Shown here: piece by piece, positions 19,393 through 36,585 of the stretch | Position numbering within the stretch: the first letter of the stretch is position 1 | Layout of the letters: each line of letters starts with the position of its first letter | The notes under the pieces: generated by a model | The model's input: the letters and a program-made list of their open reading frames with translations, nothing else | What the model was told of the DNA's origin: nothing | Database searches by the model: none | Origin: an uncultured Acidimicrobiales bacterium | GTDB taxonomy: Bacteria; Actinomycetota; Acidimicrobiia; Acidimicrobiales; SHLQ01 | Assembly (NCBI GenBank): GCA_964441145.1 | Contig: CAYTUB010000002.1 | Coordinates: forward strand, 3,305 to 67,304 | Direction of reading: 5' to 3' | DNA length: 64,000 nucleotides | Program-made: the position numbers and the translations under genes

Positions 19393-19464
19393 GTGTTCAT
19401 GCTCCTGAATGTCTTGCAATGTCGTGTGGAACCGGTTGTTCCTCAGCGACAATTTGAATGAAAG

Positions 19465-19933: not shown

Positions 19934-21874
19934 ATGCCCCAGATTCACGGATCAACACACGCATTTCGGCGACTGCAGAAGACAGCGGTGTTGTCTGTTG
20001 GCCTGACGGTCGCTCTAGTGCTCGGGCTTGCCACGGCAAGTTCCGGGCAGGTGTCCGGCGAACCCACGACGCAAGACCAGCGAGTCGTGGCCAGCGACCC
20101 AGGTACCGGCGACAGGTTCGGTACTGCAATCGCGATCGACGGCGACACGATGGTCATCGGCGCCGGGTTTGGCGACGAATTTACCGGAGCCGCATATGTG
20201 TTCGTGCGCACCGGCGACACCTGGATCGAAACACAACGACTCGTCCCCGCCGACTCTCAAACGTTCGACGGCTTTGGTTTCGCCGTGGCCATCGAGGGAG
20301 ACACAATCATCATCGGCGCAAGCCTCTCCAGTCCGTTCGTTGCCCCAGGCGAGTTGCAGGGAACGGGCGCGGCATATGTGTTCATGCGCACCGGCGACAC
20401 GTGGACCGAAACACAGAAACTGTCAGCAGACGCCCCGCAAGCAGACGGCAGGTTCGGTGCACAGCTCGCGATCGACGGCGACACACTGGTAGTCGGCGCT
20501 CCAGCAGTCGAAGATTCAGCGCAAGCGACCCATGTGTTCACCCGCACGAATGACTCCTGGACCGAAACGCAACGCTTCGCCATTCCCGATGCCGATCCAC
20601 AGAACTTCGGCACTCATGCTTTTGGCAATGCAGTCGCCATCGACGGCGACACCATCCTCGTCGGAGAAGCGTCCAGTCTGGGGAATTTTCGGGAGACCCC
20701 CGTCTATGTATTCACAGAAACCAACGGCACATGGGATCAAAGCCAAATCCTGGTGCCGACCGATCCTGAAGGAATCGGTGGTGGCGGCTTCGGTCTCTCG
20801 ATAGCAATCGACAACGACACCATCATCATCGGCGCACCCGAGACCCGGACCGCACTTCTCCGCGACTTGGGAGCGGTCTACGTGTTCAGCCAGAGCGGAA
20901 CTGCGTGGACCCAGACACAACGGTTGCAGAGTGCAAACCCACAAGCAGACGACAGGTTTGGCAGAACTGTGGCCATCGACGGCGACACCGCGATCATTGG
21001 TGCCGACACCAGGGTCACCATTGGTGGACCGGCACCAATGGATGATGTCGATGAGAGTCATGTCTCTGTATTGACTCGAATTGGCACCACCTGGACCGTG
21101 ACACAACAGCTGGCCCGATCCGACGCGCAAACAATCAACGGTTTCGGCGGCCCGGTAGCCATCGCTGATGAGACCGTCGTCGTCGGTGCATTCGCAGGTG
21201 AAGCCGGCGACATCGAGGATGCCGGAGCGGCCTATGTCTTCACGGTTGACCCTCCCCAGTTCTGCAACGGCGAACTAGTGACGGTGAATCTCGCTGCGGG
21301 CGATGTTCCAACCGATGGCCCTGACGTGATCTTGGGAACCAATGGCCCGGATGTGATCGACGCCGGTGCGGGCAAGGACGTCATTTGCGCTGAGGGTGGT
21401 GCTGACACCATCGACGCAGGCGATGGCAACGACACGATCTTTGGCGGTGCCGGTGCGGACAGCATCCAAGCAGGAAAAGGCAACGACACCGTCAACGGAA
21501 ACGGCGGCGATGATTTCGTGGTCGGCGGCAAGGGCAACGACACCCTCAACGGAGACGCTGGAGACGATGAGCTTCGTGGCGGCGCCGGCAACGACACCCT
21601 CGATGGCGGCACCGGCAAGGATGACCTCCGCGGCGACGACGGAGCCGACACCCTCAAAGGCAACAAGGGCAACGACGAACTTCGCGGCAACAAGGGAGCC
21701 GACGACATCAAAGGCGGAAACGGCAACGATGACCTCCGCGGCGGCAATGGAGCTGACGAACTCAACGGCGGCAAAGGAACCGACGAGCTCGACGGCGGCA
21801 ACGGCGAAGACACCTGCGAACTAGACCCCGACGGTCGCAACGAAGACACCCGGCGCTGTGAACTCACCGGTTAG
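19934..21874 (+). CDS. secreted FG-GAP beta-propeller (7 blades) + RTX Ca-binding repeat protein, paralogue 1
   Basis: Signal peptide ...LVLGLATASSGQ. Seven FG..(A/V)I(D/E)GDT..(V/I)GA units. Junction FCNGELVTVNLAAGDVPTDG at 21263, then 17 GxGxDx(L/I)xG nonapeptides, ending DTCELDPDGRNEDTRRCELTG. Confidence 0.85.
   Translation: MPQIHGSTHAFRRLQKTAVLSVGLTVALVLGLATASSGQVSGEPTTQDQRVVASDPGTGDRFGTAIAIDGDTMVIGAGFGDEFTGAAYVFVRTGDTWIETQRLVPADSQTFDGFGFAVAIEGDTIIIGASLSSPFVAPGELQGTGAAYVFMRTGDTWTETQKLSADAPQADGRFGAQLAIDGDTLVVGAPAVEDSAQATHVFTRTNDSWTETQRFAIPDADPQNFGTHAFGNAVAIDGDTILVGEASSLGNFRETPVYVFTETNGTWDQSQILVPTDPEGIGGGGFGLSIAIDNDTIIIGAPETRTALLRDLGAVYVFSQSGTAWTQTQRLQSANPQADDRFGRTVAIDGDTAIIGADTRVTIGGPAPMDDVDESHVSVLTRIGTTWTVTQQLARSDAQTINGFGGPVAIADETVVVGAFAGEAGDIEDAGAAYVFTVDPPQFCNGELVTVNLAAGDVPTDGPDVILGTNGPDVIDAGAGKDVICAEGGADTIDAGDGNDTIFGGAGADSIQAGKGNDTVNGNGGDDFVVGGKGNDTLNGDAGDDELRGGAGNDTLDGGTGKDDLRGDDGADTLKGNKGNDELRGNKGADDIKGGNGNDDLRGGNGADELNGGKGTDELDGGNGEDTCELDPDGRNEDTRRCELTG
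21263..21871 (+). repeat. 27-nt-period coding repeat (RTX nonapeptides) of paralogue 1; equivalent blocks occur in all members
   Basis: GAGKDVICA EGGADTIDA GDGNDTIFG GAGADSIQA GKGNDTVNG ... The other blocks start at 23660, 24583, 26595, 27760, 28633, 32439, 33661 and 35596. Confidence 0.85.
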
Positions 21875-22009: not shown

Positions 22010-24238
22010 ATGAGATCCCTAAAAACAACGCGTACTACCGCGCGCACTGAACGTACAACGAGGAAACGGCTTCGCCACACAGCCCTTTGCTCCATCCTGC
22101 TCACCACAGCGATAACGCTGGGCTTCACGGCAACCAGTACCGCCCAGGAGGTCGAGGGTCTTGCCGAGGATCAAAAGCTCGAGGGGTCGACAGATGGTCT
22201 CCTCCCCGGTGGATTCGGATTTTCCGTCGCCGCTGACGACGACACCATTGTCATTGGCGTCCCGTTCGAGACGGGTGACGGCGCAGCGTACGTGTACGAA
22301 AACACTCCTCAGGGCTGGCTGCAGACGCAGCGCCTCACCAGCAACGATGCAGCTGACGATGAGCTCCTTTTTTTCGGAGGGGGCGATCAGTTCGGCCAGG
22401 CGGTAGCCATCGACGGCGACACCATCATCGTCGGCGCACCAGCGGACACGAACTTCCCCGACGACGACGTCTTAAGAGCTTTGGGATTCATTGGTTGTTG
22501 CGAGGACGACTTCGGATTCTTCGGAGCGGCATACGTGTACGAGCGTGACGGTTCGGACTGGACGGAAACACAACGGCTCACCGACGCCGACTTCGTTTCG
22601 CTCGACAGCGATGACAACTTCTTTGTCCCGACCAGCGAGGGATTCGGCCAGGCGGTAGCCATCGACGGCGACACCATCGCCGTTGGAGCGCCCATCGGTA
22701 ACTTCAATGGTGGAACCGCCTACGTCTACGAGCGAACCGACCAAGCATGGCAATCCCAGCAAGCACTAACGGCACTCCCTGACAATTCGCCAGCGGTTCC
22801 AGGCGTTGAAATCCAACAAGGCTTTGTCTCATTCTTCAATGATGATCTCTTCGGGTACTCCCTGGCAGTCGATGGCGACACCATCGTCGTCGGTGCACCT
22901 CTCTATGGCGAAATTCCGGTCGTCAACGAGAGTTTCAATGCCGAAACCAGACCAGCGGTTGAACTCGGGGTAATCGGAAACCCGAACACCTCCGCGAACG
23001 GCGCAGCACACGTGTTCTCATTCGACGGAGACCAATGGAATGAAGACCAACGACTGTTCGGAGACGAAGAGTTCTTCGAGTTCGAGTTCGAGGACGAAGT
23101 CGACTTCGGGGACGAGATCGACTTCGGCGATGAATTGCGTCTACTCGGAATTGAAACGTTCGACGGTGGCGATCAGTTTGGTTACTCGGTAGACATCGAC
23201 ACCGACACCATCGTGGTTGGTGCGCTGTTGGAAGATGGCGAAACCTACGACGAAGGTGCCGCATACGTCTTTGCAAACAATGGTGGCATCTGGACTGACG
23301 TAGACACCCTTACTCCACTCGTTCCCGAGAGCGGTGCTCGCTTCGGTCGATCGGTCGCCATCGAAGGTGACAGCATCGTTGCTGGCTCACCCTTTGGAAA
23401 CGGCTACACGGGAGCGGCGCACCTCTTCCGCAATGACAGCGAAAGCGGATTCGAAGAAGTTGAACTCGTTGCATCCGATATCGAAGCTGGCGAGGGCTTG
23501 GGATTCTCTATTGCCTTGTCCGGCGGTACAGCTGTGGCGGGAGCGCCGCTCAATGTCAGTCTGTTCGGAGTCGACCGGGGCTTCGGCGGCGAATTCTTCA
23601 CCGACACTGGTCCGGGTGCCGCGTACGTCTTCGATGTGAGCGCTGAGCCACCGGTCCTTTGCAACAACGAAGAGGTGACCGTGAACTTGGCCCTCGGAGA
23701 TGTTCCTACCGATGGTGACGACGTGATTCTCGGAACCGATGGACCCGATGTGATTGAGGCTGGTGCCGGAAGCGACACGATCTGCGGCGGCGATGGCGAC
23801 GACACCATCAACGCTGGTGCTGGTGACGACACCGTCCTTGGCGGTTTGGGTGACGACACCATCAACGGCAGCGGCGGTGACGACGTCATTTCCGGTGACA
23901 AAGGAGCCGACATCATCAACGGTGATTCCGGTAATGACGAGCTTCGAGGCAACAAGGGCAACGACACCATCAACGGTGGCAGCGGCCTGGATCTCCTCGT
24001 CGGCAGTTCGGGCAACGATGAACTTCGAGGTGGCAAAGCCAGCGACACCCTCAAAGGTGGGACAGGCTCCGACACCCTCAAGGGAGGCAACGCTGACGAC
24101 GACCTGAGTGGCGGCAACGGCGCTGACGTTCTCGACGGCGGCGTAGGTATCGACAACCACAACGGTGGTGGCGGCGAAGACACCTGTGTGGCTGACCGCT
24201 CTGGGCTAAACGAAATCACTGAAAGGTGCGAGCTCTAG
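22010..24238 (+). CDS. secreted FG-GAP beta-propeller + RTX protein, paralogue 2
   Basis: 742 aa with a signal peptide ...GFTATSTAQE and 7 blade signatures. An acidic insert EEFFEFEFEDEVDFGDEIDFGDE is present. Junction LCNNEEVTVNLALGDVPTDG; ends DTCVADRSGLNEITERCEL. Confidence 0.85.
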   Translation: MRSLKTTRTTARTERTTRKRLRHTALCSILLTTAITLGFTATSTAQEVEGLAEDQKLEGSTDGLLPGGFGFSVAADDDTIVIGVPFETGDGAAYVYENTPQGWLQTQRLTSNDAADDELLFFGGGDQFGQAVAIDGDTIIVGAPADTNFPDDDVLRALGFIGCCEDDFGFFGAAYVYERDGSDWTETQRLTDADFVSLDSDDNFFVPTSEGFGQAVAIDGDTIAVGAPIGNFNGGTAYVYERTDQAWQSQQALTALPDNSPAVPGVEIQQGFVSFFNDDLFGYSLAVDGDTIVVGAPLYGEIPVVNESFNAETRPAVELGVIGNPNTSANGAAHVFSFDGDQWNEDQRLFGDEEFFEFEFEDEVDFGDEIDFGDELRLLGIETFDGGDQFGYSVDIDTDTIVVGALLEDGETYDEGAAYVFANNGGIWTDVDTLTPLVPESGARFGRSVAIEGDSIVAGSPFGNGYTGAAHLFRNDSESGFEEVELVASDIEAGEGLGFSIALSGGTAVAGAPLNVSLFGVDRGFGGEFFTDTGPGAAYVFDVSAEPPVLCNNEEVTVNLALGDVPTDGDDVILGTDGPDVIEAGAGSDTICGGDGDDTINAGAGDDTVLGGLGDDTINGSGGDDVISGDKGADIINGDSGNDELRGNKGNDTINGGSGLDLLVGSSGNDELRGGKASDTLKGGTGSDTLKGGNADDDLSGGNGADVLDGGVGIDNHNGGGGEDTCVADRSGLNEITERCEL

Positions 24239-24264: not shown

Positions 24265-24300
24265 CCCCCTTCCCTGCACGGGGAGGGGGTCTTTGTGCTT
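24265..24300 (+). terminator. intrinsic terminator after paralogue 2
   Basis: CCCCCTTCCC (24265-24274) pairs with GGGGAGGGGG (24280-24289) over 10 bp including one G-U pair, with a 5-nt loop, then TCTTTGTGCTTT. Confidence 0.7.
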
Positions 24301-24459: not shown

Positions 24460-25230
24460 ATGATGGCGAACATTCAAGGAAGAGGTAGGCGACCTCAAGC
24501 GTGGCTCGCACTGCTCGGCATGATCGGAATCACGCTCGCGTCAGCGTCCCCGGTCGGAGCTCAGTCTTCCGACCCTTTATTTTGTAGCGGCGAAATCGTG
24601 ACGGTCGATCTGGCCGCTGGGGACCTCCCGACCGACGGTGACGACGTGATTCTCGGGACCGATGCTGATGACTTAATCATCGCCGGTGCAGGCAACGACA
24701 TCATCTGTGGAGAGGGGGGCGACGATTCGATCGTCGGCGGCAACGGCGCCGACCTCATCTTGGGCGGGGACGGCGACGACAGCATCGCTGCCGGCGGGGG
24801 TCGTGACTTCGTAGATGCCGGCAACGGCGACGACTCGGTATCGGGTGGCACCGACGGAGATGTGATTGCCGGAGGCAACGGAAACGACACTCTCGGTGGG
24901 GGTAGAGGCTTCGACGTTGTATTTGGAGACGGCGGTGGTGACTTGCTCCTCGGCGGCCGAGGTAACGACGTACTCGACGGCGGACTCGGGAACGACGTAC
25001 TCGACGGCGGCCGCAATAGCGACAACCTCTTCGGAGGCCCCGGCGACGACGTCATCACCGGCGGTCGAGGTTTCGACAACCTGTTCGGAGGCGCCGGCGA
25101 CGACAACCTGCTCGGCGGCCCTGGTTTCGACTCGTACACGGGCGGCCGAGACGGCCAGGATCTCTGCCTTCTTTCATCCTCGGACCTCATCGACGACGTC
25201 CGCGGCTGCGAGGTCATCGATCAAGAATGA
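24460..25230 (+). CDS. secreted RTX-only paralogue 3 (no propeller blades)
   Basis: ATG 24460 follows SD AAAGGTGG and gives MMANIQGRGRRPQAWLALLGMIGITLASASPVGAQSSDPLFCSGEIVTVDLAAGDLPTDG. The signal peptide runs straight into the junction motif and the RTX repeats. Ends DLCLLSSSDLIDDVRGCEVIDQE. Confidence 0.75.
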   Translation: MMANIQGRGRRPQAWLALLGMIGITLASASPVGAQSSDPLFCSGEIVTVDLAAGDLPTDGDDVILGTDADDLIIAGAGNDIICGEGGDDSIVGGNGADLILGGDGDDSIAAGGGRDFVDAGNGDDSVSGGTDGDVIAGGNGNDTLGGGRGFDVVFGDGGGDLLLGGRGNDVLDGGLGNDVLDGGRNSDNLFGGPGDDVITGGRGFDNLFGGAGDDNLLGGPGFDSYTGGRDGQDLCLLSSSDLIDDVRGCEVIDQE

Positions 25231-25253
25231 GAACTGGAGCGGAGCAGAACATC

Positions 25254-27449
25254 ATGACCTCGATACGGCGATACAGGGGACGAGGATGGCTTGTCATGCT
25301 CGGCGCGATCGGACTGACGCTCGCGTTCGCCTCGGCACTCGGCGCCCAAGTAGACCTCGAGCCAACGACCGAGGACCAACACCTGACCGCCTCCGACGGC
25401 GAGTTGGGCGATCGATTCGGTTTCAGCGTTGCGATCGACGGCGACACCATCGTCATCGGCGCACCTGGGGACTTCTTCGACAGCAACGAGGGTGCCGCCT
25501 ACGTCTTCACTCGAACCGATGACGCCTGGATCGAGACGCAAACGCTGACCGCATCAGACGGCCAAGACTTTGATCACTTTGGTAACTCGGTGGCTATTGA
25601 AGGCGACACCATCGTCGTCGGTGCAAGCTCGGGCGAGGGCGCCGCCTACATCTTCACCAGAGCCGACAACACCTGGACCGAAACACAACAACTCACCCCA
25701 CCAGATGGCCAAGACTTTGGGGGGTTCGCCAGCAGCGTCGCTATCGACGGTGACACCATCGTCATCGGCGCACCCTTTAGTGACTCGCCCGATACAAGAC
25801 GAACAGGTGCGGCCACCGTCTTCACCCGCGCCGACGCCATCTGGAGCCAAACACAGGTACTGGCCTCATCGGACGGTCAGCAGATTGACTGGTTCGGGTT
25901 CTCGGTCGCCATCGACGGTGACACCATCGTCATCGGCGCACCGAACGCCGACACCGGCCTTAACGGCGAACGGATCTCCCCGGGAGATGGAGGGACTGAT
26001 CGTTCAGACGAGGGCGCCGCCTACATCTACACCAACACCAACAACACCTGGACCGAACAACAAAAGCTCATCGCATCAGACGGTCAAGTGAAGGACTTCT
26101 TCGGCTCCGCGTTAGCCATCGACGGAGACACCGTCGTCATTGGCGCAACTGGATTTTTCGAGTTCAGCAGCTCTGACTCGGGCGCTGCGTACATCTTCAC
26201 TCGCAACGACAACACCTGGACGCAAACGCAACGGCTATCCACCAATGACTCTGGGTTTACGCTGTTTGGTTTCTCGGTCGCCATCGACAGCGACACCGCC
26301 ATCGTCGGCGCCCTCTTCACGCCGACAACTGAAAACGTCAGACAAGCCTCGTACGTATACGAGCGCACCGAGGGCACGTGGAACGAGGTGCAGGTGGTCG
26401 CCTCAGACCAAACGGTACTGGGGGACTTTCCAAGCCAACTGATGGCTATCGACGGCGACACGCTCGTTGTGGGCTCACCCAACACGGTCGGTTTGGACGA
26501 CACCGACGTGAACGAACGGTTCGGAAACGGAGGTGGGGGCATCGGAGCGGCAGATGTCTTCGAACTCGACCTCCCCCAACCTCAAATCCCACTGTGCGGC
26601 CTCGAAGCGGTAACGGTCGACCTCGCAACCGGAGATACTCCGACAGATGGTGACGATGTCATCCTTGGAACCGACGGTGACGACATCATCAACGCCGGAG
26701 CAGGCAATGACATTATTTGCAGCCAAGGCGGAAACAACACCATCAACGGCGGAGCCGGCGCAGACCTCATCTTTGGCGCTGACGGAGACGACGTCATCGA
26801 TGCCGGACAGGGTCGAGACGTTATCTTTGGCGGTGGGGGTGCCGACACGCTTACCGGCGGACGGGGAGACGATGAGATCCTTGGCGGCAGCGGAGCAGAC
26901 ACCATCAGCGCCGGAAACGGTAGAGATGAGATCTTTGGCGGTCCCGGGTCTGACGTCCTTATCGGCGGAAACAAGAACGACCGCGTTAACGGCGACGAAG
27001 GTGATGACACCATCGACGCGGGCAAAGGAAACGACTTCATTGACGGCGACGAAGGTGATGACACCATCGACGCCGGGTTGGGTGACGACCTCGTCCGTGC
27101 CGGTGACGGAGCGGACGTCGTGGACGGCGGACGCGGCGCAGACAATATCTTCGGCGGCATCGGAGCCGACATCATCCGAGCCGGCAAGGGCAGCGACTGG
27201 ATCGACGCAGGTGCCGGTGACGACACTGTTCGAGGCGGCAGCGGTAACGACGGCCTCGACGGCCGCAAAGGAAACGACCTGCTCCGCGGTGGCGGCGGAG
27301 ACGATCGACTCAACGGTGGCCGCAATGACGACACCCTTATGGGAGGTAGCGGCGATGACATTCTCGACGGAGGCGACGACGAAGACGTCTGCAAACCCGA
27401 CCCCGACGGTCTCGACGAATTCAGCGAAAACTGCGAGCTCGACGGCTAG
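25254..27449 (+). CDS. secreted FG-GAP beta-propeller + RTX protein, paralogue 4
   Basis: ATG 25254 follows GGAGCGGAG and gives MTSIRRYRGRGWLVMLGAIGLTLAFASALGAQ. An alternative ATG at 25227 overlaps the paralogue 3 stop. There are 7 blades and the longest RTX block. Ends DVCKPDPDGLDEFSENCELDG. Confidence 0.85.
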   Translation: MTSIRRYRGRGWLVMLGAIGLTLAFASALGAQVDLEPTTEDQHLTASDGELGDRFGFSVAIDGDTIVIGAPGDFFDSNEGAAYVFTRTDDAWIETQTLTASDGQDFDHFGNSVAIEGDTIVVGASSGEGAAYIFTRADNTWTETQQLTPPDGQDFGGFASSVAIDGDTIVIGAPFSDSPDTRRTGAATVFTRADAIWSQTQVLASSDGQQIDWFGFSVAIDGDTIVIGAPNADTGLNGERISPGDGGTDRSDEGAAYIYTNTNNTWTEQQKLIASDGQVKDFFGSALAIDGDTVVIGATGFFEFSSSDSGAAYIFTRNDNTWTQTQRLSTNDSGFTLFGFSVAIDSDTAIVGALFTPTTENVRQASYVYERTEGTWNEVQVVASDQTVLGDFPSQLMAIDGDTLVVGSPNTVGLDDTDVNERFGNGGGGIGAADVFELDLPQPQIPLCGLEAVTVDLATGDTPTDGDDVILGTDGDDIINAGAGNDIICSQGGNNTINGGAGADLIFGADGDDVIDAGQGRDVIFGGGGADTLTGGRGDDEILGGSGADTISAGNGRDEIFGGPGSDVLIGGNKNDRVNGDEGDDTIDAGKGNDFIDGDEGDDTIDAGLGDDLVRAGDGADVVDGGRGADNIFGGIGADIIRAGKGSDWIDAGAGDDTVRGGSGNDGLDGRKGNDLLRGGGGDDRLNGGRNDDTLMGGSGDDILDGGDDEDVCKPDPDGLDEFSENCELDG

Positions 27450-27457
27450 GCACCGAG

Positions 27458-29226
27458 ATGACCATGGCCACACCGCAGCAACGCATCTACCGCGCATGGT
27501 TCGCGCTGCTCGGAGCGATCGGCCTGACGTTCTTATTCGCCTCCGCTCTTGGAGCGAAAGCCACTATCCAACCCACAACTGAGGACCAACAATTGCTTCG
27601 TACTGACGGTCAAGAGGATGACTTTTTCGGTCGGTCGGTGGCAATCGACGGCAACACCATGGTGGTCGGAGCTTCCGGTGCCGCGGACCAGCAGGGTACG
27701 GCCTATGTCTTCGAACGTGACGACTTGACATTGACCCCGAGCAGCCCGCTGTGGTGTTGTGCGGCGCTCTGCCAGTAACGGCCGATCTCGCCGCGGGTGA
27801 TCTCCCGACCGACGGCGAAGATGTCATCCTCGGAACGAACGATGATGACGTGATCCTCGCAGGCGCAGGAGACGACATCATCTGCGGACAAGGCGGAAAC
27901 GACAGCATCTTCGGCGATGGAGGTGACGATGCCCTCTTCGGGAATCGTGGGGACGACTCACTCGACGGCGGCGCTGGCAGCGACGAACTCGATGGCTCTT
28001 TCGAGAACGATGCCTTACGAGGCGACCGCTCCACATTCGTCGCCGGCGCCCCAAGCGACTTTTCAGCATCCCTAAAGACAGGCGCTGCGTATATCTTCAC
28101 CCAAACCGACGACACCTGGACCGAGACCCAAACACTTGAGAGCGCGCTCGATCAGCGAGGCGATCACTTTGGCGAATCAGTCGCTATCGAAGGCGACACC
28201 ATCTTCGCTGGGGCACCCTATGGGTTTGTCTCCGAGGGGAATGAATCGCAGCGCAACAATCTGGCGGATGGCGCAGTCTTCATCTTCGATCGCACCGGCG
28301 ACACCTGGAGCGAGACACAGAGCTTCTCCATCACCGCCGAAAGCCATGAGGCCTTAGGAATGTCCGTCGATCTCGATGGTGACACTGCCGTCGTCGGGTC
28401 TGGAGACTTTCGAGGTGACGGATCGGCGTACCTGTACACACGAACCGATGGCACATGGGCTCAACAAACACGATTCCGTGCGACTGACTCCACCCGTGGT
28501 GCCGAGATGGGACGGTCCGTGGCAATCGATGGCGACACCATCTTCGCCGGCGCACCAAATGACGACAACAACGACACGGGGTCAGGAGCAGCGTTCGTCT
28601 TTGGCACCGATGCACTCAACCAAACAGTTGCGTGCCACGGCAGCCCAGTCACCGTTGATCTCGCAGCCGGCGAACTCCCCACCGACGAAGACGACGTCAT
28701 CTTGGGAACCGATGGCCCCGACGTCATCGAGGCTGGCAAGGGCAGTGACATCATCTGCGCCTTCGGCGGCGATGACACGATCGACGCCGGAAATGGCCAA
28801 GACCTCATCTTCGCTGGCGACGGCGACGACACCATCAGCGCCGGTGGCGGTTCTGACATCGTCCATGCCCAAGGTGGCGACGACGTCGTAACCGGTGGCA
28901 GCCACCACGACATCATCATGGGTGGTGCCGGTAACGATGATCTCCGTGGCGGTGCGGGTCAAGATGAACTCCGCGGCGGACATGGCAACGACAAGCTGCG
29001 TGGTGGGCAAGCGAAAGACACGCTCTTTGGCGCTAACGGCAAGGACACGCTTATCGGTGGCAAAGGCCCCGATAAGCTTGAGGGTGGCAGAGGCCTAGAC
29101 GCCTCCGACGGCGGACAAGGAGTTGACCTCTGCGAAGCCCTCTTCGACGACCGTGACGAAGAAACCACGAGCTGCGAGTTCGATGACTTCTTTGAATTCG
29201 CCGATTTTATCTATGACGTTGGCTGA
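27458..29226 (+). pseudogene. chimeric paralogue 5, interrupted by a frameshift near 27720
   Basis: ORF 27458-27778 encodes a signal peptide plus one blade (...TAYVFERD) and then runs into nonsense. The family junction (LDIDPEQPAVVLCGALPVTADLAAGDLPTDG) continues in the -1 frame (ORF 27751-29226). Overall order: short RTX block, about 4 blades, second junction (VACHGSPVTVDL, 28633), second RTX block, cap. Confidence 0.6.
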
Positions 29227-29242: not shown

Positions 29243-30859
29243 TTACCCCAAGTTCAATAGCGACGCGTCGTAGTCGTCGGGAGCGGCGAAGCCGAGCAGG
29301 TTCGCGAGGGTGGCGGCGATGTTGGTAAGACCAGCATCATCGGCACCCTCCAACTTGTATCCGGCTGTGCCGGTGTCGTGAATTGCGAACGGCACGGGTG
29401 AGAGCGTGTGGCTCGTGACCGGCACGCGCTCGCCGTCTTTCTCCTTGTACATGATGTCGGCGTTGCCGTGATCGGCGGTGAACACCAACACGCCGCCGAG
29501 CTCATCGATGACCGGCAGTAATTTGCCGACACATTCGTCGAGTACGCGAATGGCCTCGATCGTCGCATTGAGATCGCCGGTGTGGCCGACCATGTCGGGA
29601 CTCGGGAAGTTCAAGCGTCCCCAGTCGTAGTCACCGGAGCGAAGCATCTCAATGGTTTGCTCGGTGATCTCACGTACCTTCATCGCCGGCGTCTTGTTGA
29701 ACTCGACATTGTCTGACGGGATCTCGATGTAGGTCTCGAGGTCTTCGTTGATGAAGCCCGATCGGTTGCCGTTCCAGAAATAGGTGACGTGACCGAACTT
29801 CTGTGTCTCACTAATCGCAAAGCTGCGAAGTCCCTCGGCGCAGAGGTACTCGCTCAATGTGTTGTCGATCGCCGGTGGATCCACCAGGTAGCGCTTGGGT
29901 ACGAAGGCATCACCGTCGTATTGCAACAAGCCCACGTAGTTGACGTTTGGGTGATCGCCTCGATCGAAGAACGCGAAGTCTGCGTCTTCGTAGGCCTGAC
30001 TGATCTCGATCGCTCGATCGCCGCGGAAGTTGAACAGCACTACCCCATCGCCGTCGGACATCGTCCCAACCGGCGCTCCCCCGTCGTCGACGATCACGAA
30101 TTCGTCGAGATCCTGATCGCCGGCGTCGCTCTCGCCATACATTGTCTCAACCGCTTCGATGGCGGACGCGAACTGGCGGCCGATGCCATGGGTGTGGGTG
30201 TTGTACCCGCGCTCAACCATTGGCCAATCCGCTCCGTAGCGGTCCATGGTGATCGTCATGCGGCCGCCACCCGATGCAATGCGAAAGTTCGCTCCGTCGT
30301 AGGAGCTATTGATCTCGGCCAGCACAGCTTCGGTCGCTTCGATGTACCCCAGCGCCGAGCGCGGATCGACGTCACGGCCGTCGTGGAGAATGTGCACCGC
30401 ACAACGGGTTACGCCGGCATCAGCAGCGCCACGCAACAAGGCATAAAGGTGATCGTTGTGGGAGTGGACGTTGCCGTCGGAATGCAGCCCGAGAAAGTGA
30501 AGTGTGTTGTCTCGACCTGAGGCAATGACATCGTTCCAGGCGTCGCTTTCGAAAATGGATCCTTCGGCGATGGCCTTGTTCACGAGCTTGGCGCCCTGGG
30601 CGAAAATTCGACCGGCACCAAGCGCATTGTGGCCAACCTCGCTATTTCCCATATCGCCATCGGTGGGAAGCCCGACAGCGGGACCATGTGCCCGTAGTTC
30701 GATCGAGTCTGCGAGGAGCGCATCGATGTGTGGTGTCTCAGCCATGGCGATCGCATTTGATTCGACATGGTCGGCACAACCAAAGCCGTCGGCGATCACC
30801 AACAGCAGCGGGCCTTCACGATCGATTGGTGAGTCGAGCTTTTTAAGCGACAGTTCCAT
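29243..30859 (-). CDS. gpmI: 2,3-bisphosphoglycerate-independent phosphoglycerate mutase
   Basis: 538 aa, ...VIADGFG..., SEVGHNALGAGR, ...TADHGNAD.... This housekeeping gene sits on the opposite strand inside the paralogue array. Confidence 0.9.
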   Translation of the reverse strand: MELSLKKLDSPIDREGPLLLVIADGFGCADHVESNAIAMAETPHIDALLADSIELRAHGPAVGLPTDGDMGNSEVGHNALGAGRIFAQGAKLVNKAIAEGSIFESDAWNDVIASGRDNTLHFLGLHSDGNVHSHNDHLYALLRGAADAGVTRCAVHILHDGRDVDPRSALGYIEATEAVLAEINSSYDGANFRIASGGGRMTITMDRYGADWPMVERGYNTHTHGIGRQFASAIEAVETMYGESDAGDQDLDEFVIVDDGGAPVGTMSDGDGVVLFNFRGDRAIEISQAYEDADFAFFDRGDHPNVNYVGLLQYDGDAFVPKRYLVDPPAIDNTLSEYLCAEGLRSFAISETQKFGHVTYFWNGNRSGFINEDLETYIEIPSDNVEFNKTPAMKVREITEQTIEMLRSGDYDWGRLNFPSPDMVGHTGDLNATIEAIRVLDECVGKLLPVIDELGGVLVFTADHGNADIMYKEKDGERVPVTSHTLSPVPFAIHDTGTAGYKLEGADDAGLTNIAATLANLLGFAAPDDYDASLLNLG

Positions 30860-31052: not shown

Positions 31053-32990
31053 ATGCCCAGTAATTCACCCTCCCTACGCAATTCACGTTGGCTCCGGAGA
31101 ACAACCATCTCCTCGCTAGCACTCACCGGAACACTCCTCTTCGGCTTCACCGCAGTAAGCGCTCAAGCTCAAGCACCGACAAACGTCGAAGGTCAGACGC
31201 TTGTAGCCGATGATCTCGCATCGCTCGCTGAGCTCGGCGATGCCGTCGCAATCGACGGCGACACCCTCATCGTCGGCGCACCTTCGCCCGATCGAGCTGA
31301 AGAGGGCGCCGCATATATCTTCACTCGCGATGCCGCAGGTGAGTGGGCCAACCCACAGAGAATCACCGCGGGCGATGCCGGCGGTGGCGATCTCTTCGGC
31401 ACCGCCGTCGCCATTGATGGCGACACCATCATCGTCGGCGCTTCAGGTGATCGCGACTTCGGATTCGGTTCAGGTTCTGCCTACGTCTTCACCCGCACCG
31501 GCACCAGCTGGACCGAGCAGGCGAAACTCAACGCCATCGACGGACGATCCAGCGACAGTTTCGGTGTGTCGGTAGCTATTAGCGGCGACACCATCGCTAT
31601 CGGCGCAATCGGTCGAGACGATGTCTATACCGGACCCCTCGTCGACCCTATGACCCAGGAACCCGTCTTGGACGCAAACGGAGACCCTGTACTCGGCCTC
31701 CTCGTCGACCAGGCAGACATCGGTTCAGTCCACATCTTTAGCCGCACCGGCACCAGCTGGACACAGCAACAAGAGGTCGTGGCAAGCGACTTTGCTGCGA
31801 GTGATCAGTTCGGCTCAGCAATCGCTATCGACGGCGACACCCTCGCTGTTGGCGTACGCCAGGACGATACCGCTGCAGGCAACGACGCCGGTTCTGCCTA
31901 CGTCTTCACCCGCACCGGGACCGACTGGACCCAGCAACAACAGTTGTTCTTCGCGGACGAAGCACAGTTCGACTTCTTCGGTGACTCGATCGCCATCGAC
32001 GGAAACACCATCGCAGTCGGTGTTCCTGGCGAAGATCCCGGGGGCGTCACCGCTTCTGGAGCAGTGGCCATCTTTACGGGCGCAGGCGACAACTGGACCC
32101 AAAGCCAAGAGCTCACAGCACCAGCACCAGCCTTGAATGACCAATTCGGCTTCTCGCTCGACATCGAGGGAACCAGCATCATCGTCGGTGCTCCTTCAAA
32201 TCTCCAGGGCGCAACAAACACGGGTGCGGCGTACGTCTACACCTCAGCGGCCGGAGTCTGGTCACTAGATCAAGAGCTTGTGCCTAGCCAACCGGTTGCA
32301 TCGGACGAATTCGCTAATGCAGTTGCAATCTCTGGCGGTACCGCACTAGTCGGCGCACCAGCTATCGATACTGCGTTCGTCTATGCCGATGGCCTTGACG
32401 TAGCACCGCCACCACCACCAGAACCAGTGGTCCCGACCTGTAACGGTCTCGAAGTAACCGTCAACCTCGCACTTGGGGATGTACCGACTGCTGGCGACGA
32501 TGTGATTCTCGGAACCGACGGTCCTGACGTGATTGAAGCTGGCGACGGCGCAGATGTGATCTGTGGCGGCGACGGCGACGACATCATCCGAGCCGGCAAG
32601 GGCGGCGACTGGATCGACGCAGGTGCCGGTGACGACACTGTTGCTGGCGGCAAGGGCCACGACACCATCAACGGTGGCGAAGGCAACGATGACCTCCGCG
32701 GTGACAAGGGCCGAGACACCATCAACGGTGGCGAAGGCAACGATGACCTCCGCGGTGACGAGGGCCAAGACACCATCAACGGTGGCGAAGGCAACGACGT
32801 CCTCCGAGGCGGCACGAAAGCTGACGTACTCAACGGTGACGCCGGTGACGACAACCTTGGTGGCGGTAAGGGAACTGACATCCTCGATGGCGGTATCGGC
32901 ATAGATGAGTTCAACGGCGGCGGCGGCACCGACAGCTGCACGGTAGATCCCAACGGTCTGACCGAAATCGTCGCTAAGTGTGAGAACTAG
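31053..32990 (+). CDS. secreted FG-GAP beta-propeller + RTX protein, paralogue 6
   Basis: 645 aa with a signal peptide ...FGFTAVSAQAQA and 7 blades. Junction PTCNGLEVTVNLALGDVPTAG; ends DSCTVDPNGLTEIVAKCEN. Confidence 0.85.
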   Translation: MPSNSPSLRNSRWLRRTTISSLALTGTLLFGFTAVSAQAQAPTNVEGQTLVADDLASLAELGDAVAIDGDTLIVGAPSPDRAEEGAAYIFTRDAAGEWANPQRITAGDAGGGDLFGTAVAIDGDTIIVGASGDRDFGFGSGSAYVFTRTGTSWTEQAKLNAIDGRSSDSFGVSVAISGDTIAIGAIGRDDVYTGPLVDPMTQEPVLDANGDPVLGLLVDQADIGSVHIFSRTGTSWTQQQEVVASDFAASDQFGSAIAIDGDTLAVGVRQDDTAAGNDAGSAYVFTRTGTDWTQQQQLFFADEAQFDFFGDSIAIDGNTIAVGVPGEDPGGVTASGAVAIFTGAGDNWTQSQELTAPAPALNDQFGFSLDIEGTSIIVGAPSNLQGATNTGAAYVYTSAAGVWSLDQELVPSQPVASDEFANAVAISGGTALVGAPAIDTAFVYADGLDVAPPPPPEPVVPTCNGLEVTVNLALGDVPTAGDDVILGTDGPDVIEAGDGADVICGGDGDDIIRAGKGGDWIDAGAGDDTVAGGKGHDTINGGEGNDDLRGDKGRDTINGGEGNDDLRGDEGQDTINGGEGNDVLRGGTKADVLNGDAGDDNLGGGKGTDILDGGIGIDEFNGGGGTDSCTVDPNGLTEIVAKCEN

Positions 32991-33139: not shown

Positions 33140-34239
33140 ATGGCTACAACACCTCACACAAGACCTATCTCCAAGAGACCAACGGGTGCATTATTGGTCA
33201 TGTTGTTGGTCATCATCGGGGCGGCAACTGCGGCCGGAGCGCAAAACACATCGGTAACAACCGAGGATCAAAAGCTCACCGGCATCGATGCCGACGCATC
33301 CGATCAGTTCGGTGATGCAGTCGCGATCGATGGAGACACCTTGGTCGTCGGTGCACCCTTCGGCAATCAAGGCGTTGGCTCGGCCTACGTCTTCGAACGT
33401 TCCGGATCAACCTGGATCCAACAAGCAACGTTGACGGACAACCCTTGGTGGACAGTCAGGGTTCAGCCACGGTCTTCCGCAGAGCTGGCAACAACTGGAA
33501 CGAGCTCACCACACTGATCGCATCTGACGGCATCGGCTCTGACGGATTTGGGTACGCAATCGGCAACGACGGTGGCAGCATTGTCGTTGGCGCCCCATTC
33601 GATAGCACTCTCGATTCGGCCCGCGGCGCAGCGTATGTCTTCAGCATCGAGCAAGTTACCTGCGCCGGCCTCGCAGTGACCGTGAACGTGGCTAACGGCG
33701 ATGTACCTACCGATGGCGACGATGTGATTCTTGGAACGGATGGTCCCGACGTGATCAACGCCGGTGCCGGACGCGATGTCATCTGCGGGGAGGGTGGTGC
33801 CGACACGATCAACGGCGGCTCCCGAAACGACGTCATCTTCGGAGGGGCCGGTGCTGACACCATTCAGGCTGGTAAAGGCAACGACACGGTCAACGGCAAC
33901 GGAGGCGCCGACATCATCACCGGTGGCAACGGTCGGGACACCATCTTCGGTGACGCCGGCGCTGATGAGCTCCGCGGCAACCAAGGAAGTGACACCATCA
34001 ACGGCGGCTCTGGAAACGACCTTCTCGTCGGGGGCTCTGGTACCGATGAGCTTCGCGGCGTCAAAGGGTCCGACACCATCAACGGCGGCAACGGCAAGGA
34101 CCTGCTCGTTGGCGGTAACGGAGCTGACGATCTCGACGGCGGCATCGGAAACGATGAGTACAACGGTGGCGGCGGCAACGACACCTGCGCCGCAGACCCC
34201 GACGGCCGAAACGAAGTATCCGCAAACTGCGAGAGCTAA
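33140..34239 (+). pseudogene. paralogue 7: internal-deletion derivative with a frameshift at the junction (about 33436-33447)
   Basis: ORF 33140-33517 gives a signal peptide plus blade 1, very similar to the paralogue 8 N-terminus. After ...QQATLTDNP the family sequence (LVDSQGSATVFRRAGNNWNELTTLIASDG..., last blade + RTX + cap) continues in the -1 frame (ORF 33445-34239). Confidence 0.6.
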
Positions 34240-34243
34240 CAAC
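34120..34243 (+). repeat. 124-bp exact direct repeat, copy 1 (3' end of paralogue 7)
   Basis: Identical base-for-base to 36136-36259 (GGAGCTGACGATCTCGACGGCGGCATCGG...GCGAGAGCTAACAAC), including the stop codon and 4 nt beyond it. Confidence 0.9.
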
Positions 34244-34383: not shown

Positions 34384-36255
34384 ATGACCAAACCACTTCG
34401 CCCAGGAACCCTGCCAAAGAAACCCACGGCTGCATTGCTCGTCATAGTGTTGCTCATTATCGGCGCAGCATCCGCCGTCGGAGCCCAAAGCACACCGGTA
34501 ACGAACGAAGATCAAAAGCTCACCGTCGACGGTGCCGAAGCATTCGATCGACTGGGTGAAGCAGTGGCAATCGATGGCGACACCTTGGTCGTCGGTGTGC
34601 CCGTCGACGACGATTCCCTTGGCTCGGCGTACGTCTTCGAACGTTCGGGGTCCAACTGGGTCCAACAGGCGAGGTTAACGTCAACAAACGATTCTGGTAG
34701 CGAAGTCGCCTTCGGGGCGGCCCTAGCGATCGACGGAGACACGATCGTTGTTGGCGCACCACTAGAAACACCAGACGACAATTTCAGACTCGCCGACGCG
34801 GGTGCTGCCTACGTATTTGTTCGATCTGGCAACGACTGGAACTTGCAGGCGCGAATAGTCGAACCAGTCAACCAAGGTTCCGGAAATTCATTCAGCGCTT
34901 CAGTGGCTATCGAGGGCGACACAATCGCCATAAGTGCGCCATTTTCGCAGACACCTGCGAGCTACGTGTTCGAACGGTCTGGCAACAACAACTGGAACTT
35001 CCAAACCGAACTCCAATCACCAAACACCATCGTGGGCGGAATGTCTGTCGCGATCGATGGGAACACCATCGTTGCTTCCTCAGAGATTCACTCCGGCAAC
35101 ACCTTCCAAGGTGCTGTAGATGTCTTCACAAACACCGGTGCGTCATGGGAACATCAAGACACGCTCGTGACTACGGCGCCTCAAGAGTTTGGTCTCCCGC
35201 ATTCCGTCGACATCGACGGCGACACCATCGCCACACTTAGCGACGAGGGAACCCTGATCTTCACCCGTTCGGGAACCACCTGGACTGAACGAGCAAATAT
35301 CGCCAGTCTGGGGGCCGTCTCGCTATCGGACAATGTACTTACGGTCGCACAACCCGCCGACGACTCAGCGATCGTATTTGGTGGATCAGGGAGCGATTGG
35401 TTTGAGCTTACGAGGTTGGTCGCCTCCGATGGTCAATTTGGTGATGCGTTTGCAATCAGCTTCTCGGGTGGGAACCCAATTGATAACGACGGTGGCACCA
35501 TCATCGTTGGCGCACCCTTTGCTGGCAGTCTGAATGCCGCTGTTGGGGCGGCGTATGTGTTTAGCGTCGAGTTCTCATTGGCTGATATCGAGGTCTGCAA
35601 CGGCGAGCTCGTCACAGTGAACCTCGCTGATGGTGATCGTCCTACCAACGGTGCGGACGTGATTCTTGGAACCGATGGCGATGACGTGATTGGCGCTGGT
35701 GCCGGAAACGACACCATTTGTGCTGGAGCTGGCAATGACACCATCAACGCTGGCGACGGTGCAGACACGGTCTTCGGTGGCGGCGGTGACGACATCATTA
35801 ACGGCGGCCAAGGCCAAGACGTCATAGACGGCAACGGCGGTGACGATGTCATTTCGGGTGGCAAGGGCAAGGACGTCATCAACGGCGGCTCGAATAACGA
35901 CGACCTTCGGGGCAACGACGGCGACGACACCATCGATGGCGGCAACGGGGACGATGTCATTAACGGCGGCGTAGGCAAGGACAACCTTCGCGGTAGAAAG
36001 GGAGCCGACGTCATCACTGGTGGCAACAGCAACGACGTGATCAGTGGCGGAGCCGACCGAGATGAACTGCGTGGCAGCAAGGGCCAGGACGCCATCGTCG
36101 GTGGCAACAGCAACGACATCCTTATCGGTGGCGATGGAGCTGACGATCTCGACGGCGGCATCGGAAACGATGAGTACAACGGTGGCGGCGGCAACGACAC
36201 CTGCGCCGCAGACCCCGACGGCCGAAACGAAGTATCCGCAAACTGCGAGAGCTAA
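34384..36255 (+). CDS. secreted FG-GAP beta-propeller + RTX protein, paralogue 8
   Basis: 623 aa with a signal peptide ...LLIIGAASAVGAQ and about 7 blades, the later ones degenerate. Junction EVCNGELVTVNLADGDRPTNG; ends DTCAADPDGRNEVSANCES. Confidence 0.85.
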   Translation: MTKPLRPGTLPKKPTAALLVIVLLIIGAASAVGAQSTPVTNEDQKLTVDGAEAFDRLGEAVAIDGDTLVVGVPVDDDSLGSAYVFERSGSNWVQQARLTSTNDSGSEVAFGAALAIDGDTIVVGAPLETPDDNFRLADAGAAYVFVRSGNDWNLQARIVEPVNQGSGNSFSASVAIEGDTIAISAPFSQTPASYVFERSGNNNWNFQTELQSPNTIVGGMSVAIDGNTIVASSEIHSGNTFQGAVDVFTNTGASWEHQDTLVTTAPQEFGLPHSVDIDGDTIATLSDEGTLIFTRSGTTWTERANIASLGAVSLSDNVLTVAQPADDSAIVFGGSGSDWFELTRLVASDGQFGDAFAISFSGGNPIDNDGGTIIVGAPFAGSLNAAVGAAYVFSVEFSLADIEVCNGELVTVNLADGDRPTNGADVILGTDGDDVIGAGAGNDTICAGAGNDTINAGDGADTVFGGGGDDIINGGQGQDVIDGNGGDDVISGGKGKDVINGGSNNDDLRGNDGDDTIDGGNGDDVINGGVGKDNLRGRKGADVITGGNSNDVISGGADRDELRGSKGQDAIVGGNSNDILIGGDGADDLDGGIGNDEYNGGGGNDTCAADPDGRNEVSANCES

Positions 36256-36259
36256 CAAC
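36136..36259 (+). repeat. 124-bp exact direct repeat, copy 2 (3' end of paralogue 8)
   Basis: Identical to 34120-34243. Confidence 0.9.
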
Positions 36260-36282: not shown

Positions 36283-36585
36283 ATGGCACGATCCGATGTT
36301 CTTGACACACATGACGTAATCGCCGCAATGAGCGAACTACATCCTGATTGGGAATTGGCTTCGGGCAAGCTCCATCGAGAATTGGTCTTTGCCGACTTCA
36401 TCACCGCCTTTTCGTTCATGACCGCGGTAGCGATCAAGGCCGAAAAGCTCGATCATCATCCGGAGTGGAGCAACACCTACAACCGCGTAACGGTCGATCT
36501 CGTAACCCACGATTCCGAGGGAACTACACAGCTCGATCTAGAACTCGCAGCTCACATCGACGCCTGCAGTAGTCACCGCGCCTAG
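36283..36585 (+). CDS. pterin-4a-carbinolamine dehydratase (PCD/DCoH)
   Basis: ...WELASGKLHRELVFADFITAFSFMTAVAIKAEKLDHHPEWSNTYNRVTVDLVTHD... The start may be GTG 36265. Its TAG stop overlaps the dnaN TAG in the palindrome CTAG (36582-36585). Confidence 0.8.
   Translation: MARSDVLDTHDVIAAMSELHPDWELASGKLHRELVFADFITAFSFMTAVAIKAEKLDHHPEWSNTYNRVTVDLVTHDSEGTTQLDLELAAHIDACSSHRA

Follow-up and report, generated by a model that had tools for sequence, protein, structure and literature searches.

Paralogue 5 (p5), which occupies positions 27458-29226 of the 64,000-nucleotide stretch of DNA analysed here (the window), is probably a genuine chimeric pseudogene, made by deletion and fixed in the population, in a lineage-specific tandem gene family of an uncultured Acidimicrobiales bacterium. 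Judging from sequences and structure models, members of this family are predicted to be Sec-secreted proteins combining a seven-bladed, integrin-like FG-GAP beta-propeller with an RTX beta-roll. The array comprises 8-9 fast-diverging genes of this kind between dnaK and dnaA-dnaN, and the intact members in the window (p1, p2, p4, p6, and p7) have seven blades and one RTX block in a single frame. The neighbourhood dnaK ... gpmI ... dnaN-dnaA is common to the window and the loci of relatives. Among these relatives, the intact proteins P0002, P0004, and P0007 from the metagenomic Acidimicrobiales loci L088, L089, and L091 share with p5 the same building blocks and neighbourhood, namely a Sec signal, FG-GAP_2 blades, a Cys junction of the form CxG..VTV(D/N)L..GD.PTDGDDVILGT, an RTX beta-roll, and a C...CE C-terminus. 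What sets p5 apart is its 1 + 3.5 blades, its two RTX blocks, the change of frame, and a C-terminal tail of 15 aa.

Parts and parentage of paralogue 5

All p5 features lie on the plus strand. The first reading frame (ORF-a, 27458-27778) encodes 106 aa, starts 8 nt past the p4 stop codon, and was called as a gene of this length in all assemblies. Its translation runs from MTMATPQQRIYRAWFALLGAIGLTFLFASALGA to FGRSVAIDGNTMVVGASGAADQQGTAYVFERDD and then ends in LTLTPSSPLWCCAALCQ before the stop. The region of MTMATPQQRIYRAWFALLGAIGLTFLFASALGA (27458-27556), with a charged n-region, a hydrophobic core, and ALGA, is predicted to be a Sec-type signal peptide; it shares 52-58% identity with the p4 and P0002 N-termini. 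Blade 1 (27575-27724), an FG-GAP repeat, remains blade-1-like through AYVFERDD, p4 aa 2-98 aligning to 27443-27724, and is followed by 17 out-of-frame residues. ORF-a scored 57.2 bits against the Pfam model FG-GAP_2 (PF14312), for which the cut-off is 23. After a TGA at 27718-27720, the -1 frame is open for 502 codons from 27721 to the stop at 29224-29226 and starts with RLDIDPEQPAVVLCGALPVTADLAAGDLPTDGEDVILGT; the gene-finder call within it (ORF-b, 27751-29226) has a GTG start and 491 aa. This frame contains a linker and junction, seven RTX nonapeptides, 3.5 blades, a second junction, approximately 16 nonapeptides, and the Cys-rich family C-terminus. It scored 86.1 bits over three stretches against FG-GAP_2 (cut-off 23) and 129.5 bits over seven stretches against the Pfam model HemolysinCabind (PF00353), above the gathering score. 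The preliminary description had read a signal peptide and one blade in ORF-a and an open -1 frame from 27721, and both were recovered at these positions.

In the frame-change interval (27721-27750), blade 1 runs directly into the pre-junction linker, without the six blades that p4 has at aa 99-445. The linker and junction 1 (LDIDPEQPAVVLCGALPVTADLAAGDLPTDGEDVI, 27724-27828, frame b), delimited by alignment to p4, lead into RTX block 1 (27829-28026), where the approximately seven nonapeptides noted earlier were mapped as exactly seven. This block is homologous to p4 aa ~480-546, and the remaining RTX repeats and C-terminus of that gene are missing. An ungapped alignment of p4 aa 446-546 to 27727-28026 gave 55% identity, which bears out the proposed match of the p5 junction to ADVFELDLPQPQIPLCGLEAVTVDL in p4. 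At the fusion point, where ..ALRGD meets RSTFVAGAP.. in frame (28021-28032), the p4 alignment ends and those of P0004 and P0007 begin, with a shared G-D microhomology. Alignment and the AF2 model assign 28027-28137 to a half blade, the C-terminal half of the downstream parent's blade 4. Blades 5, 6, and 7 follow at 28138-28326, 28327-28476, and 28477-28602, respectively, according to Pfam, alignment, and AF2. Three clear AI(E/D)GDT units had been described in this part; there are indeed three full blades, but the motif occurs in two of them, and the remaining one carries DLDGDT.

The linker and junction 2 (GTDALNQTVACHGSPVTVDLAAGELPTDEDDVI, 28603-28701) were delimited by alignment, with VACHGSPVTVDL starting at 28627 and its Cys at 28633, the position previously given for a second junction. 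The second RTX block described with it spans 28702-29127 and contains ~16 nonapeptides in register (Pfam; 57-61% identity to P0007, P0006, and P0016). The gene closes (29128-29226) with the family two-Cys motif LCEALFDDRDEETTSCEF and an atypical 15-aa tail, DDFFEFADFIYDVG, before the stop codon; C-termini in the family stop 0-4 residues beyond CE. The tail overlaps a terminator-like hairpin at 29174-29201.

The two modules of p5 have different nearest relatives. Module A (signal peptide, blade 1, junction, and seven RTX units) aligned to p4 aa 2-98 with 52.6-57.5% and to p4 aa 446-546 with 55% amino acid identity, and to p3 with 57%, p4 and p3 being its closest relatives. Module B was closest to P0004 (aa 262-658) and P0007 (aa 229-607), with 45-48% identity, and its junction and RTX part reached 61% identity to P0007. 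These alignments indicate that module B begins midway through blade 4 of a seven-bladed member. The differing affinities argue for two old paralogues fused together rather than one gene duplicated internally, in agreement with the earlier suggestion that a truncated member was fused onto the middle of another. Alignment to the paralogues, by which the chimera was to be checked, placed the breakpoints at 27721-27750 and 28021-28032. Recent gene conversion or recombination with a paralogue in the window was rejected as the source of the chimera, since the best nucleotide match was 76% over 142 nt.

A closed propeller of the FG-GAP/integrin-alpha type needs seven blades, and the AF2 model of intact p4 contained seven four-stranded blades and a beta-roll. 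In p5, blade 1 is in ORF-a and 3.5 blades are in ORF-b. The AF2 model of ORF-b had ~4 blade units and a beta-roll, with pLDDT mostly 85-95 over blades 5-7 and 92-98 over RTX block 2, which forms the beta-roll. RTX block 1 was unstructured, and pLDDT was below 50 for junction 1 and RTX block 1, a segment that the input alignment barely covers; the low values were for that reason not taken as evidence of misfolding.

The top Foldseek matches of the ORF-b model were the integrin alpha propellers alphaL, alpha4, alphaX, alphaIIb, alphaV, and alpha5 (E 4e-7 to 1e-5, probability 1.00). However, identity was only 14-21%, and the family protein is a bacterial secreted one, with no beta-subunit partner or transmembrane part, and p5 does not have all seven blades. 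The GGxGxDxUx nonapeptides of p5 are also those of the RTX beta-roll of CyaA, serralysin/alkaline protease, and family I.3 lipase, and the p4 sequence matches CyaA, lipase, and serralysin chains in PDB. Against the RTX toxin and serralysin models NF033943 and NF035945, scores were 118 versus the 1000 bits required and 50.4 versus 500, respectively, and only the repeat region matched. In contrast to RTX toxins, which rely on a C-terminal T1SS signal, members of this actinobacterial family carry N-terminal Sec-type signal peptides, as read from the translations. No T1SS genes were found among the gene calls listed for the ~21-kb locus.

Frame change and proposed deletions

The frameshift and fusion sites were identical in ten metagenome assemblies from at least four BioSamples and with three contig-naming styles (including BioSamples SAMN08954254, SAMN08954264, SAMN08954265, and SAMN08954317, contigs with k141_ names, and two Logan runs); all are short-read metagenome data, and several may share source samples. 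The recurrence of the same out-of-frame sequence shows a real frameshift and speaks against the sequencing error named earlier as a refuting alternative, and the frame of p5 is reproducibly disrupted relative to intact homologues. In tblastn with p4, P0002, and P0010, the frame switched at 27724/27727. The change had been tentatively attributed to a single-base loss around 27716-27724. The frame change itself stands, but its position may be anywhere in ~27721-27750 as far as homology goes: the stretch 27721-27778 is open in both frames, and linker sequences vary too much across the family to locate the switch. An out-of-frame deletion of ~1 kb of blades, with the frame change as its scar, is at least as likely as the single-base loss. 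Loss of 1 nt in the C4 run at 27735-27738, the sole homopolymer in the interval, is a further option.

No intact version of p5 was found among 5.8 billion protein clusters, in which the best match besides ORF-b itself was 38-42% identical, and the frame-repaired 589-aa p5 used as a protein query had no close intact relative. The 90% cluster of ORF-b contained only forms of 491, 490, 288, and 285 aa. Scans of JGI metagenomes for a gapped pattern across the frameshift gave no match. The closest GTDB species representatives (L008-L010, uncultured Acidimicrobiales with gpmI 77-78% identical) had no FG-GAP/RTX genes near gpmI, so they offer no orthologue for comparison.

A sister haplotype (L007), whose gpmI is 99.45% identical at the nucleotide level, lacks window positions 27474-29223 save for a 27-nt fragment. 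It joins 27473 to 29224 through filler, consisting of a 26-mer (CEVSG-stop + 8 nt) and then 27 nt equal to window 28211-28237. The 26-mer is absent from the window, and scans of JGI metagenomes for it gave no match. Compared with 3' ends and their spacers, it matched p4 at 16/26 and p1 at 15/26 positions, the background frequency of at least 15 matches being 5e-4. A family-type 3' end (CEVSG, stop, and 8-nt spacer) that is missing from the window fits a two-gene ancestor of p5, which we infer from this single 1982-bp contig. The same contig points to p5 being dispensable in a close relative.

In the proposed history, two old paralogues, 5A and 5B, would have lain head to tail between p4 and gpmI. 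A first deletion may have removed blades 2-7 of 5A, bringing blade 1 up against the pre-junction linker; it was most likely itself out of frame, and the frameshift would be its scar. A second deletion would have extended from RTX nonapeptide 7 or 8 of 5A to midway through 5B blade 4, with an in-frame join at the G-D microhomology, taking with it the 3' end of 5A, the spacer, and the signal peptide and first 3.5 blades of 5B. An in-frame outcome of the second fusion has a chance of 1/3, and selection for a product would give the same result.

The array contains a second paralogue with the same pattern. In p6b (33140-34239), the frame changes exactly at the blade-deletion junction, which lies at 33436 and connects aa 99 to aa ~320 of p7/P0073, indicating that out-of-frame deletions do happen in this array. 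It is possible, though clearly the less probable course, that the frameshift of the same chimeric pseudogene was a separate later event, recombination between blade repeats having first taken out blades 2-7 in frame and a single base then having been lost, for example in C4 (27735-27738) or in GACGAC (27719-27724). The two open frames and the variable linker leave room for this, a C4 homopolymer lies inside the interval, and p3 has lost its entire propeller cleanly and in frame. However, the gene is 1.77 kb long and its frame changes within ~30 nt of where the blades were deleted, a proximity with a chance of ~3% if the indel were independent, and p6b speaks for a change at the junction itself.

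Coding potential of the two frames

The preliminary description had raised the alternative that ORF-b is an independent gene with its own start signals, and none were found. No SD-like motif precedes its GTG at 27751, whereas p1, p2, p3, and p6 have AAGGCGG or AAGGTGG upstream. ORF-b also lacks a signal peptide, and its start falls within the conserved linker between blade and junction. These features make it improbable that p5 yields two functional products, a small secreted one-blade protein from ORF-a and a leaderless RTX/propeller protein from ORF-b made by translational coupling at the GTG, which overlaps the end of ORF-a. Gene finders do call both ORFs, ORF-b is undecayed, and in a relative, P0004 is preceded by a similar 109-aa ORF with a signal peptide and one blade (L089 9606-9935). 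But the L089 ORF is not an orthologue, being what remains of another paralogue (63% to p1), and the last 17 residues of ORF-a are the linker read in the wrong frame. Moreover, both ORFs are missing in the L007 haplotype, and a first protein search did not find the split arrangement in diverged relatives.

Programmed recoding, by -1 ribosomal frameshifting or transcriptional slippage, into a full 590-aa secreted protein with the order signal peptide, blade, RTX, blades, RTX is very unlikely, as is a phase-variation switch. In p5, as in p6b, the second frame is shifted by -1 from the first, and ORF-b is fully open with the frameshift fixed in the population, all of which recoding would accommodate. 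However, there was no slippery X XXY YYZ heptamer in 27690-27780 and no A/T run in the ORF overlap. The RNA downstream of the p5 shift had an MFE of -30.1 kcal/mol, its shuffles averaging -31.9 (z = +0.59), and that downstream of the p6b shift was no better than shuffles either (z = +0.95). Programmed frameshifting was rejected because there was neither a heptamer nor a fold beyond shuffles. The shift sites of p5 and p6b have no common motif, no length-variable tract or variation among the ten assemblies was seen that would suit a switch, and the repaired product would have only ~4.5 blades.

As a chimeric pseudogene, p5 would at present yield at most a 106-aa secreted fragment, predicted to comprise the signal peptide, one blade, and a junk tail. 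Considering that ORF-b has no ribosome-binding motif or export signal, that frame-repaired p5 would have only ~4.5 of seven blades, and that L007 has nearly lost the gene, p5 most likely no longer functions and is being lost. For annotation, ORF-a and ORF-b would be one frameshifted chimeric pseudogene, not two genes or an assembly error.

The blade and RTX motifs of ORF-b look undecayed. This speaks against a dead gene and would mean that inactivation was recent or that ORF-b is still under some constraint. Only two SNPs in ORF-b distinguish strains, one nonsynonymous and one at a third position, probably synonymous (L094).

Rearrangement within the array

The order of blade(s), junction, and RTX occurs twice in p5, as an internal partial duplication of a single gene would produce, but such an origin is highly unlikely. 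The two junction and RTX copies were 51% identical in amino acids and 57% in nucleotides, no nearer to each other than to other array members; other array members and foreign relatives reach 55-61%. Third-codon (synonymous) positions are saturated between paralogues, and the separate 3' end and spacer left in L007 argue for two genes. The chance of a sequencing or assembly artefact, with the true gene in one frame or the blade deletions being collapsed repeats, is close to negligible: the family is repeat-rich and the short-read assemblies may overlap in samples, but their agreement across samples and naming styles, a shift not necessarily in a homopolymer, and blades with only 31-51-nt stretches in common, at 80-90% identity, all stand against it. 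A de Bruijn mis-join via repeats was rejected, since no exact repeat longer than 14 nt was found at either p5 junction and a graph with k of at least 21 cannot jump there.

Deletion-made fusion pseudogenes are a general pattern of birth-and-death evolution in tandem multigene families. Like them, p5 joins diverged neighbours with frame loss, varies in presence and absence, and has other decayed copies nearby (p3 and p6b); its membership is descriptive, and nothing essential differs. The decay of p5 is ordinary for a fast-changing tandem gene family and opens no new question, and its junctions are a clean worked example of module loss and reshuffling by deletion in tandem repeat-protein families. 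Rfam and tRNA scans of the window gave no match, and a literature search on the family in Acidimicrobiia and on the sample accessions found nothing relevant.

Rearranged architectures in the family are not automatically dead. A 625-aa protein of L091 (5999-7876; P0061/P0066) has the order signal peptide, junction, RTX, CEL, and seven blades, with RTX before blades as in p5, and evidently arose as a fusion of two neighbouring paralogues. Unlike p5, it is in frame with all seven blades and no second RTX block. Its presence in several clusters (of 9 and 3 member sequences) suggests that it is probably functional.

The nearest species-level relatives lack the array, and its structure is polymorphic within one population; its products are candidate cell-surface or adhesion proteins under diversifying pressure in uncultured Acidimicrobiales. 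Pseudogene cassettes feed antigenic variation in some pathogens. There is a very slight chance that p3 (no blades), p5, and p6b are kept as silent donor cassettes or switchable modules that diversify secreted propeller/RTX proteins by recombination; if so, a cassette system would adjoin the replication origin of a free-living or host-associated member of the Acidimicrobiales. Structural polymorphism, seen in the L007 deletion and in an RTX copy number of p6 that differs within the population, is compatible with such a role. So is sequence exchange between array members: p6b and p7 share ~91% identity over their 3' 172 nt, against 56% amino acid identity over the rest of the aligned parts.

Paralogue 5 in the tandem array

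The gene under study, p5 (27458-29226), belongs to a tandem array of FG-GAP/RTX paralogues on the forward strand, located between dnaK (17551-19452) and dnaN/dnaA (36582-39658) and interrupted by the convergent gpmI (29243-30859), all three on the reverse strand. The full-length members p1 (19934-21874), p2 (22010-24238), p4 (25227-27449), p6 (31053-32990) and p7 (34384-36255) encode, from the N to the C terminus, a Sec-type signal peptide, seven FG-GAP_2 blades, a Cys-containing junction (C.G..VTV[DN]L..GD.PTDGDDVILGT), an RTX nonapeptide block and a C...CE motif, and end 0-4 residues past its CE. An AlphaFold2 model of p4 showed seven four-stranded blades and a long beta-roll (mean pLDDT 83.6). 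The literature search on this family found nothing relevant, and the family is uncharacterised. The p5 blades are structurally similar to integrin alpha propellers, and the family RTX repeats resemble the beta-rolls of CyaA, lipase and serralysin, although their scores do not come close to the cut-offs for the RTX-toxin and serralysin families.

Immediately upstream of p4, p3 (~24460-25230) contains a signal peptide, linker, junction and RTX block but no blades. Its ORF is intact and has an SD-like motif, so the entire propeller was lost in frame. The stop codon of p3 and the start codon of p4 overlap in an ATGA, and 8 nt separate the p4 stop from the p5 start, so that p3-p4-p5 look like one operon; a strong hairpin (24266-24289) lies upstream of the three.

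The preliminary description of p5, a signal peptide and one blade that decay in frame, followed in the -1 frame by a junction, about seven nonapeptides, new blades, a second junction and a second RTX block, was reproduced throughout. In ORF-a (27458-27778), the signal peptide is followed by blade 1 (...FGRSVAIDGNTMVVGASGAADQQGTAYVFERDD) and then by 17 nonsense residues (LTLTPSSPLWCCAALCQ) before the stop. The -1 frame (frame b) is open from the TGA at 27718-27720 to 29226. It encodes a linker and junction 1 (27724-27828), RTX block 1 of exactly seven nonapeptides (27829-28026), a half blade (28027-28137), three full blades (28138-28602), a linker and junction 2 (28603-28701, Cys at 28633), RTX block 2 of about sixteen nonapeptides (28702-29127) and the two-Cys C-terminal motif (29128-29181). 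Pfam searches gave FG-GAP_2 in ORF-a, and HemolysinCabind and FG-GAP_2 in frame b. An unusual tail (29182-29226) extends 15 residues beyond the usual family end (CEF, then DDFFEFADFIYDVG and a stop) and overlaps a terminator-like hairpin (29174-29201). The usual stop may have been lost, or the tail may be typical of a gpmI-adjacent copy. A comparable tail, CEGEAFFRDN before the stop, occurs in P0002, the gpmI-adjacent protein of the related locus L088.

Chimeric structure and loss of frame

When intact relatives were aligned by tblastn, p4 aa 2-98 matched 27443-27724 in the ORF-a frame and p4 aa 446 onwards matched from 27727 in frame b, so that p5 lacks any equivalent of p4 aa 99-445 (blades 2-7). 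The RTX homology with p4 is ungapped up to ...ALRGD(R), and from RSTFVAGAP on, p5 aligns to the relatives' proteins P0004 (aa 262-658, 45-47%) and P0007 (aa 229-607, 48%), starting in mid-blade 4. The nearest sequences to the front module are the neighbours p4 and p3 together with P0002 (55-58%), and those to the rear junction and RTX block are another group, P0007, P0006 and P0016 (57-61%). These alignments point firmly to p5 being a chimera of two different family members, a truncated one fused onto the middle of another, as had been proposed. A recent internal duplication was excluded, the two junction and RTX copies within p5 being only 51% (amino acid) and 57% (nucleotide) identical with saturated third positions, as was recent conversion from another window paralogue (best nucleotide match 76% over 142 nt).

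The frame must switch after the frame-b stop (27718-27720) and by roughly 27750; the boundary of blade 1 with the linker is no more than about 30 nt away. A similar arrangement was found in p6b (~33140-34239), in which a signal peptide and blade 1 (66% to p7 aa 7-99) are read in one frame as far as 33436, and the -1 frame from 33436 encodes the last blade(s), junction, RTX block and C terminus (p7 aa ~322-623, 56%). Residue 99 of p7 or P0073 is thus joined to residue ~320, and the frame changes exactly at 33436; gene finders called only a 263-aa ORF. Hence p6b is a second disabled paralogue, from which about 220 internal codons were deleted out of frame. Because of this precedent and the position of the p5 frame change, we consider it most likely that p5 lost its frame through one out-of-frame deletion of about 1 kb. 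The preliminary description had correctly placed a frame change here; the single-base loss around 27716-27724 that it suggested is a possible cause.

Recoding, or an independent ORF-b (491 aa from a GTG at 27751), is unlikely, because no slippery heptamer was found at the switch, the downstream RNA fold was no better than that of shuffled sequence (z = +0.59), and the GTG lacks both the AAGG(C/T)GG motif found upstream of p1, p2, p3 and p6 and a following signal peptide. The sole homopolymer at the switch is a C4 run (27735-27738).

Sequencing or assembly error was rejected. Assemblies of the same locus were retrieved through exact matches to the proteins of the adjacent gpmI and p4 genes and to ORF-b cluster members. 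Ten independent metagenome assemblies, naming at least four BioSamples, were letter-identical over 27650-27800 and 27960-28080, and seven of them contained the complete 27458-29226. Their three contig-naming styles (k141_*, BPAM22-1_*_METAG-scaffold_* and Logan) suggest different assembly pipelines. No exact repeat longer than 14 nt was found at either p5 junction, so a de Bruijn graph jump there is impossible; between paralogues, blades reach 80-90% identity over short stretches only. A frame-repaired query against 5.8 billion protein clusters returned no intact version, only ORF-b itself and next matches of 38-42% identity, and the ORF-b 90% cluster consisted only of forms of 491 and 490 aa plus two fragments from contig ends. 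Two contigs (L092 and L093) end inside p5, at the equivalent of ~28587, with a called protein terminating in ...GSGLSLIHI. Since this is the translation of the Nextera adapter CTGTCTCTTATACACATCT, the truncation reflects contig-end adapter contamination and is not a biological variant.

Other haplotypes and probable decay of p5

In a further sample, contig L007 (ERZ23487831, 1982 bp) has a gpmI 99.45% identical in nucleotides and an identical p4 3' end, with only 57 nt between the equivalents of 27473 and 29224: a 26-mer, 27 nt and AGAT. The 26-mer, TGTGAAGTCAGCGGCTAAGTATCGCC, reads C-E-V-S-G-stop followed by an 8-nt spacer and is absent from the window. Of its 26 positions, 16 match the p4 3' end plus 8-nt spacer and 15 match the p1 3' end; only 5e-4 of window positions give at least 15 matches. 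The 27-nt piece is identical to 28211-28237, a blade-5 fragment. The remnants thus run p5 start, family 3' end and spacer, module-B (rear) blade and p5 stop. Such an order, read from one short contig, is expected if two ancestral genes, 5A followed by 5B, were eroded by different deletions. The same contig shows, by its deletion, a p5 locus that is apparently dispensable. Six of the 17 nt separating the p5 and gpmI stops differ between L007 and the window. A third haplotype, L094, retains ORF-b's 3' half with two substitutions, of which one is nonsynonymous and the other, at a third position, probably synonymous.

We read p5 as most likely non-functional, because at most 4.5 of seven blades remain, ORF-b lacks an export signal and a deletion haplotype circulates. 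An AF2 model of ORF-b contained about four blade units and, predicted with confidence, a beta-roll at the C terminus, with junction 1 and RTX block 1 unstructured, where alignment coverage is poor. Against loss of function, frame b is open over 502 codons with motifs intact, so either inactivation is recent or some constraint persists, and an intact, conserved rearranged relative exists (L091 5999-7876; signal peptide, junction, RTX, seven blades). In this 625-aa protein (P0061/P0066) of reversed domain order, TSCEL, the usual C terminus, runs without a stop directly into the blades. The protein is conserved in several clusters and apparently arose by read-through between two neighbouring paralogues.

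Turnover of the family

The host is an uncultured Acidimicrobiales whose gpmI is 77-78% identical to the gpmI of three Acidimicrobiales MAGs. In these MAGs, its closest relatives at species level, no FG-GAP/RTX array surrounds gpmI. Metagenomic loci of nearer relatives (L088, L089 and L091) carry shorter arrays in the same dnaK-gpmI-dnaN-dnaA neighbourhood. Remnants (L089 9606-9935, L090 1642-1917 and L091 3815-4021) lie between dnaK and the first full-length member, and include a 109-aa ORF of signal peptide plus one blade (63% to p1) and a 68-aa blade fragment. Such shorter arrays and remnants indicate that the family evolves by rapid duplication, deletion and fusion, with p5 as one decaying product of this turnover.

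The array directly adjoins dnaN and dnaA, with rnpA, yidD and yidC further out, presumably a replication-origin region. The p6 RTX block contains a 54-nt tandem repeat (32651-32806; 2.9 copies, 94% identical). One assembly (L005) has 54 nt fewer there, giving a p6 of 627 aa instead of 645 aa, and another (L002) has about 155 nt extra, with the p6 ORF uncalled; the repeat is nearly perfect, and these differences reflect either true copy-number variation or its ambiguous assembly. The final 172 nt of p6b (34072-34243) are about 91% identical to p7 (36088-36259) and encode the same last ~30 residues, compared with 56% protein identity over the whole aligned C-terminal part, a pattern that suggests gene conversion between the p6b pseudogene and the intact p7 next to it.
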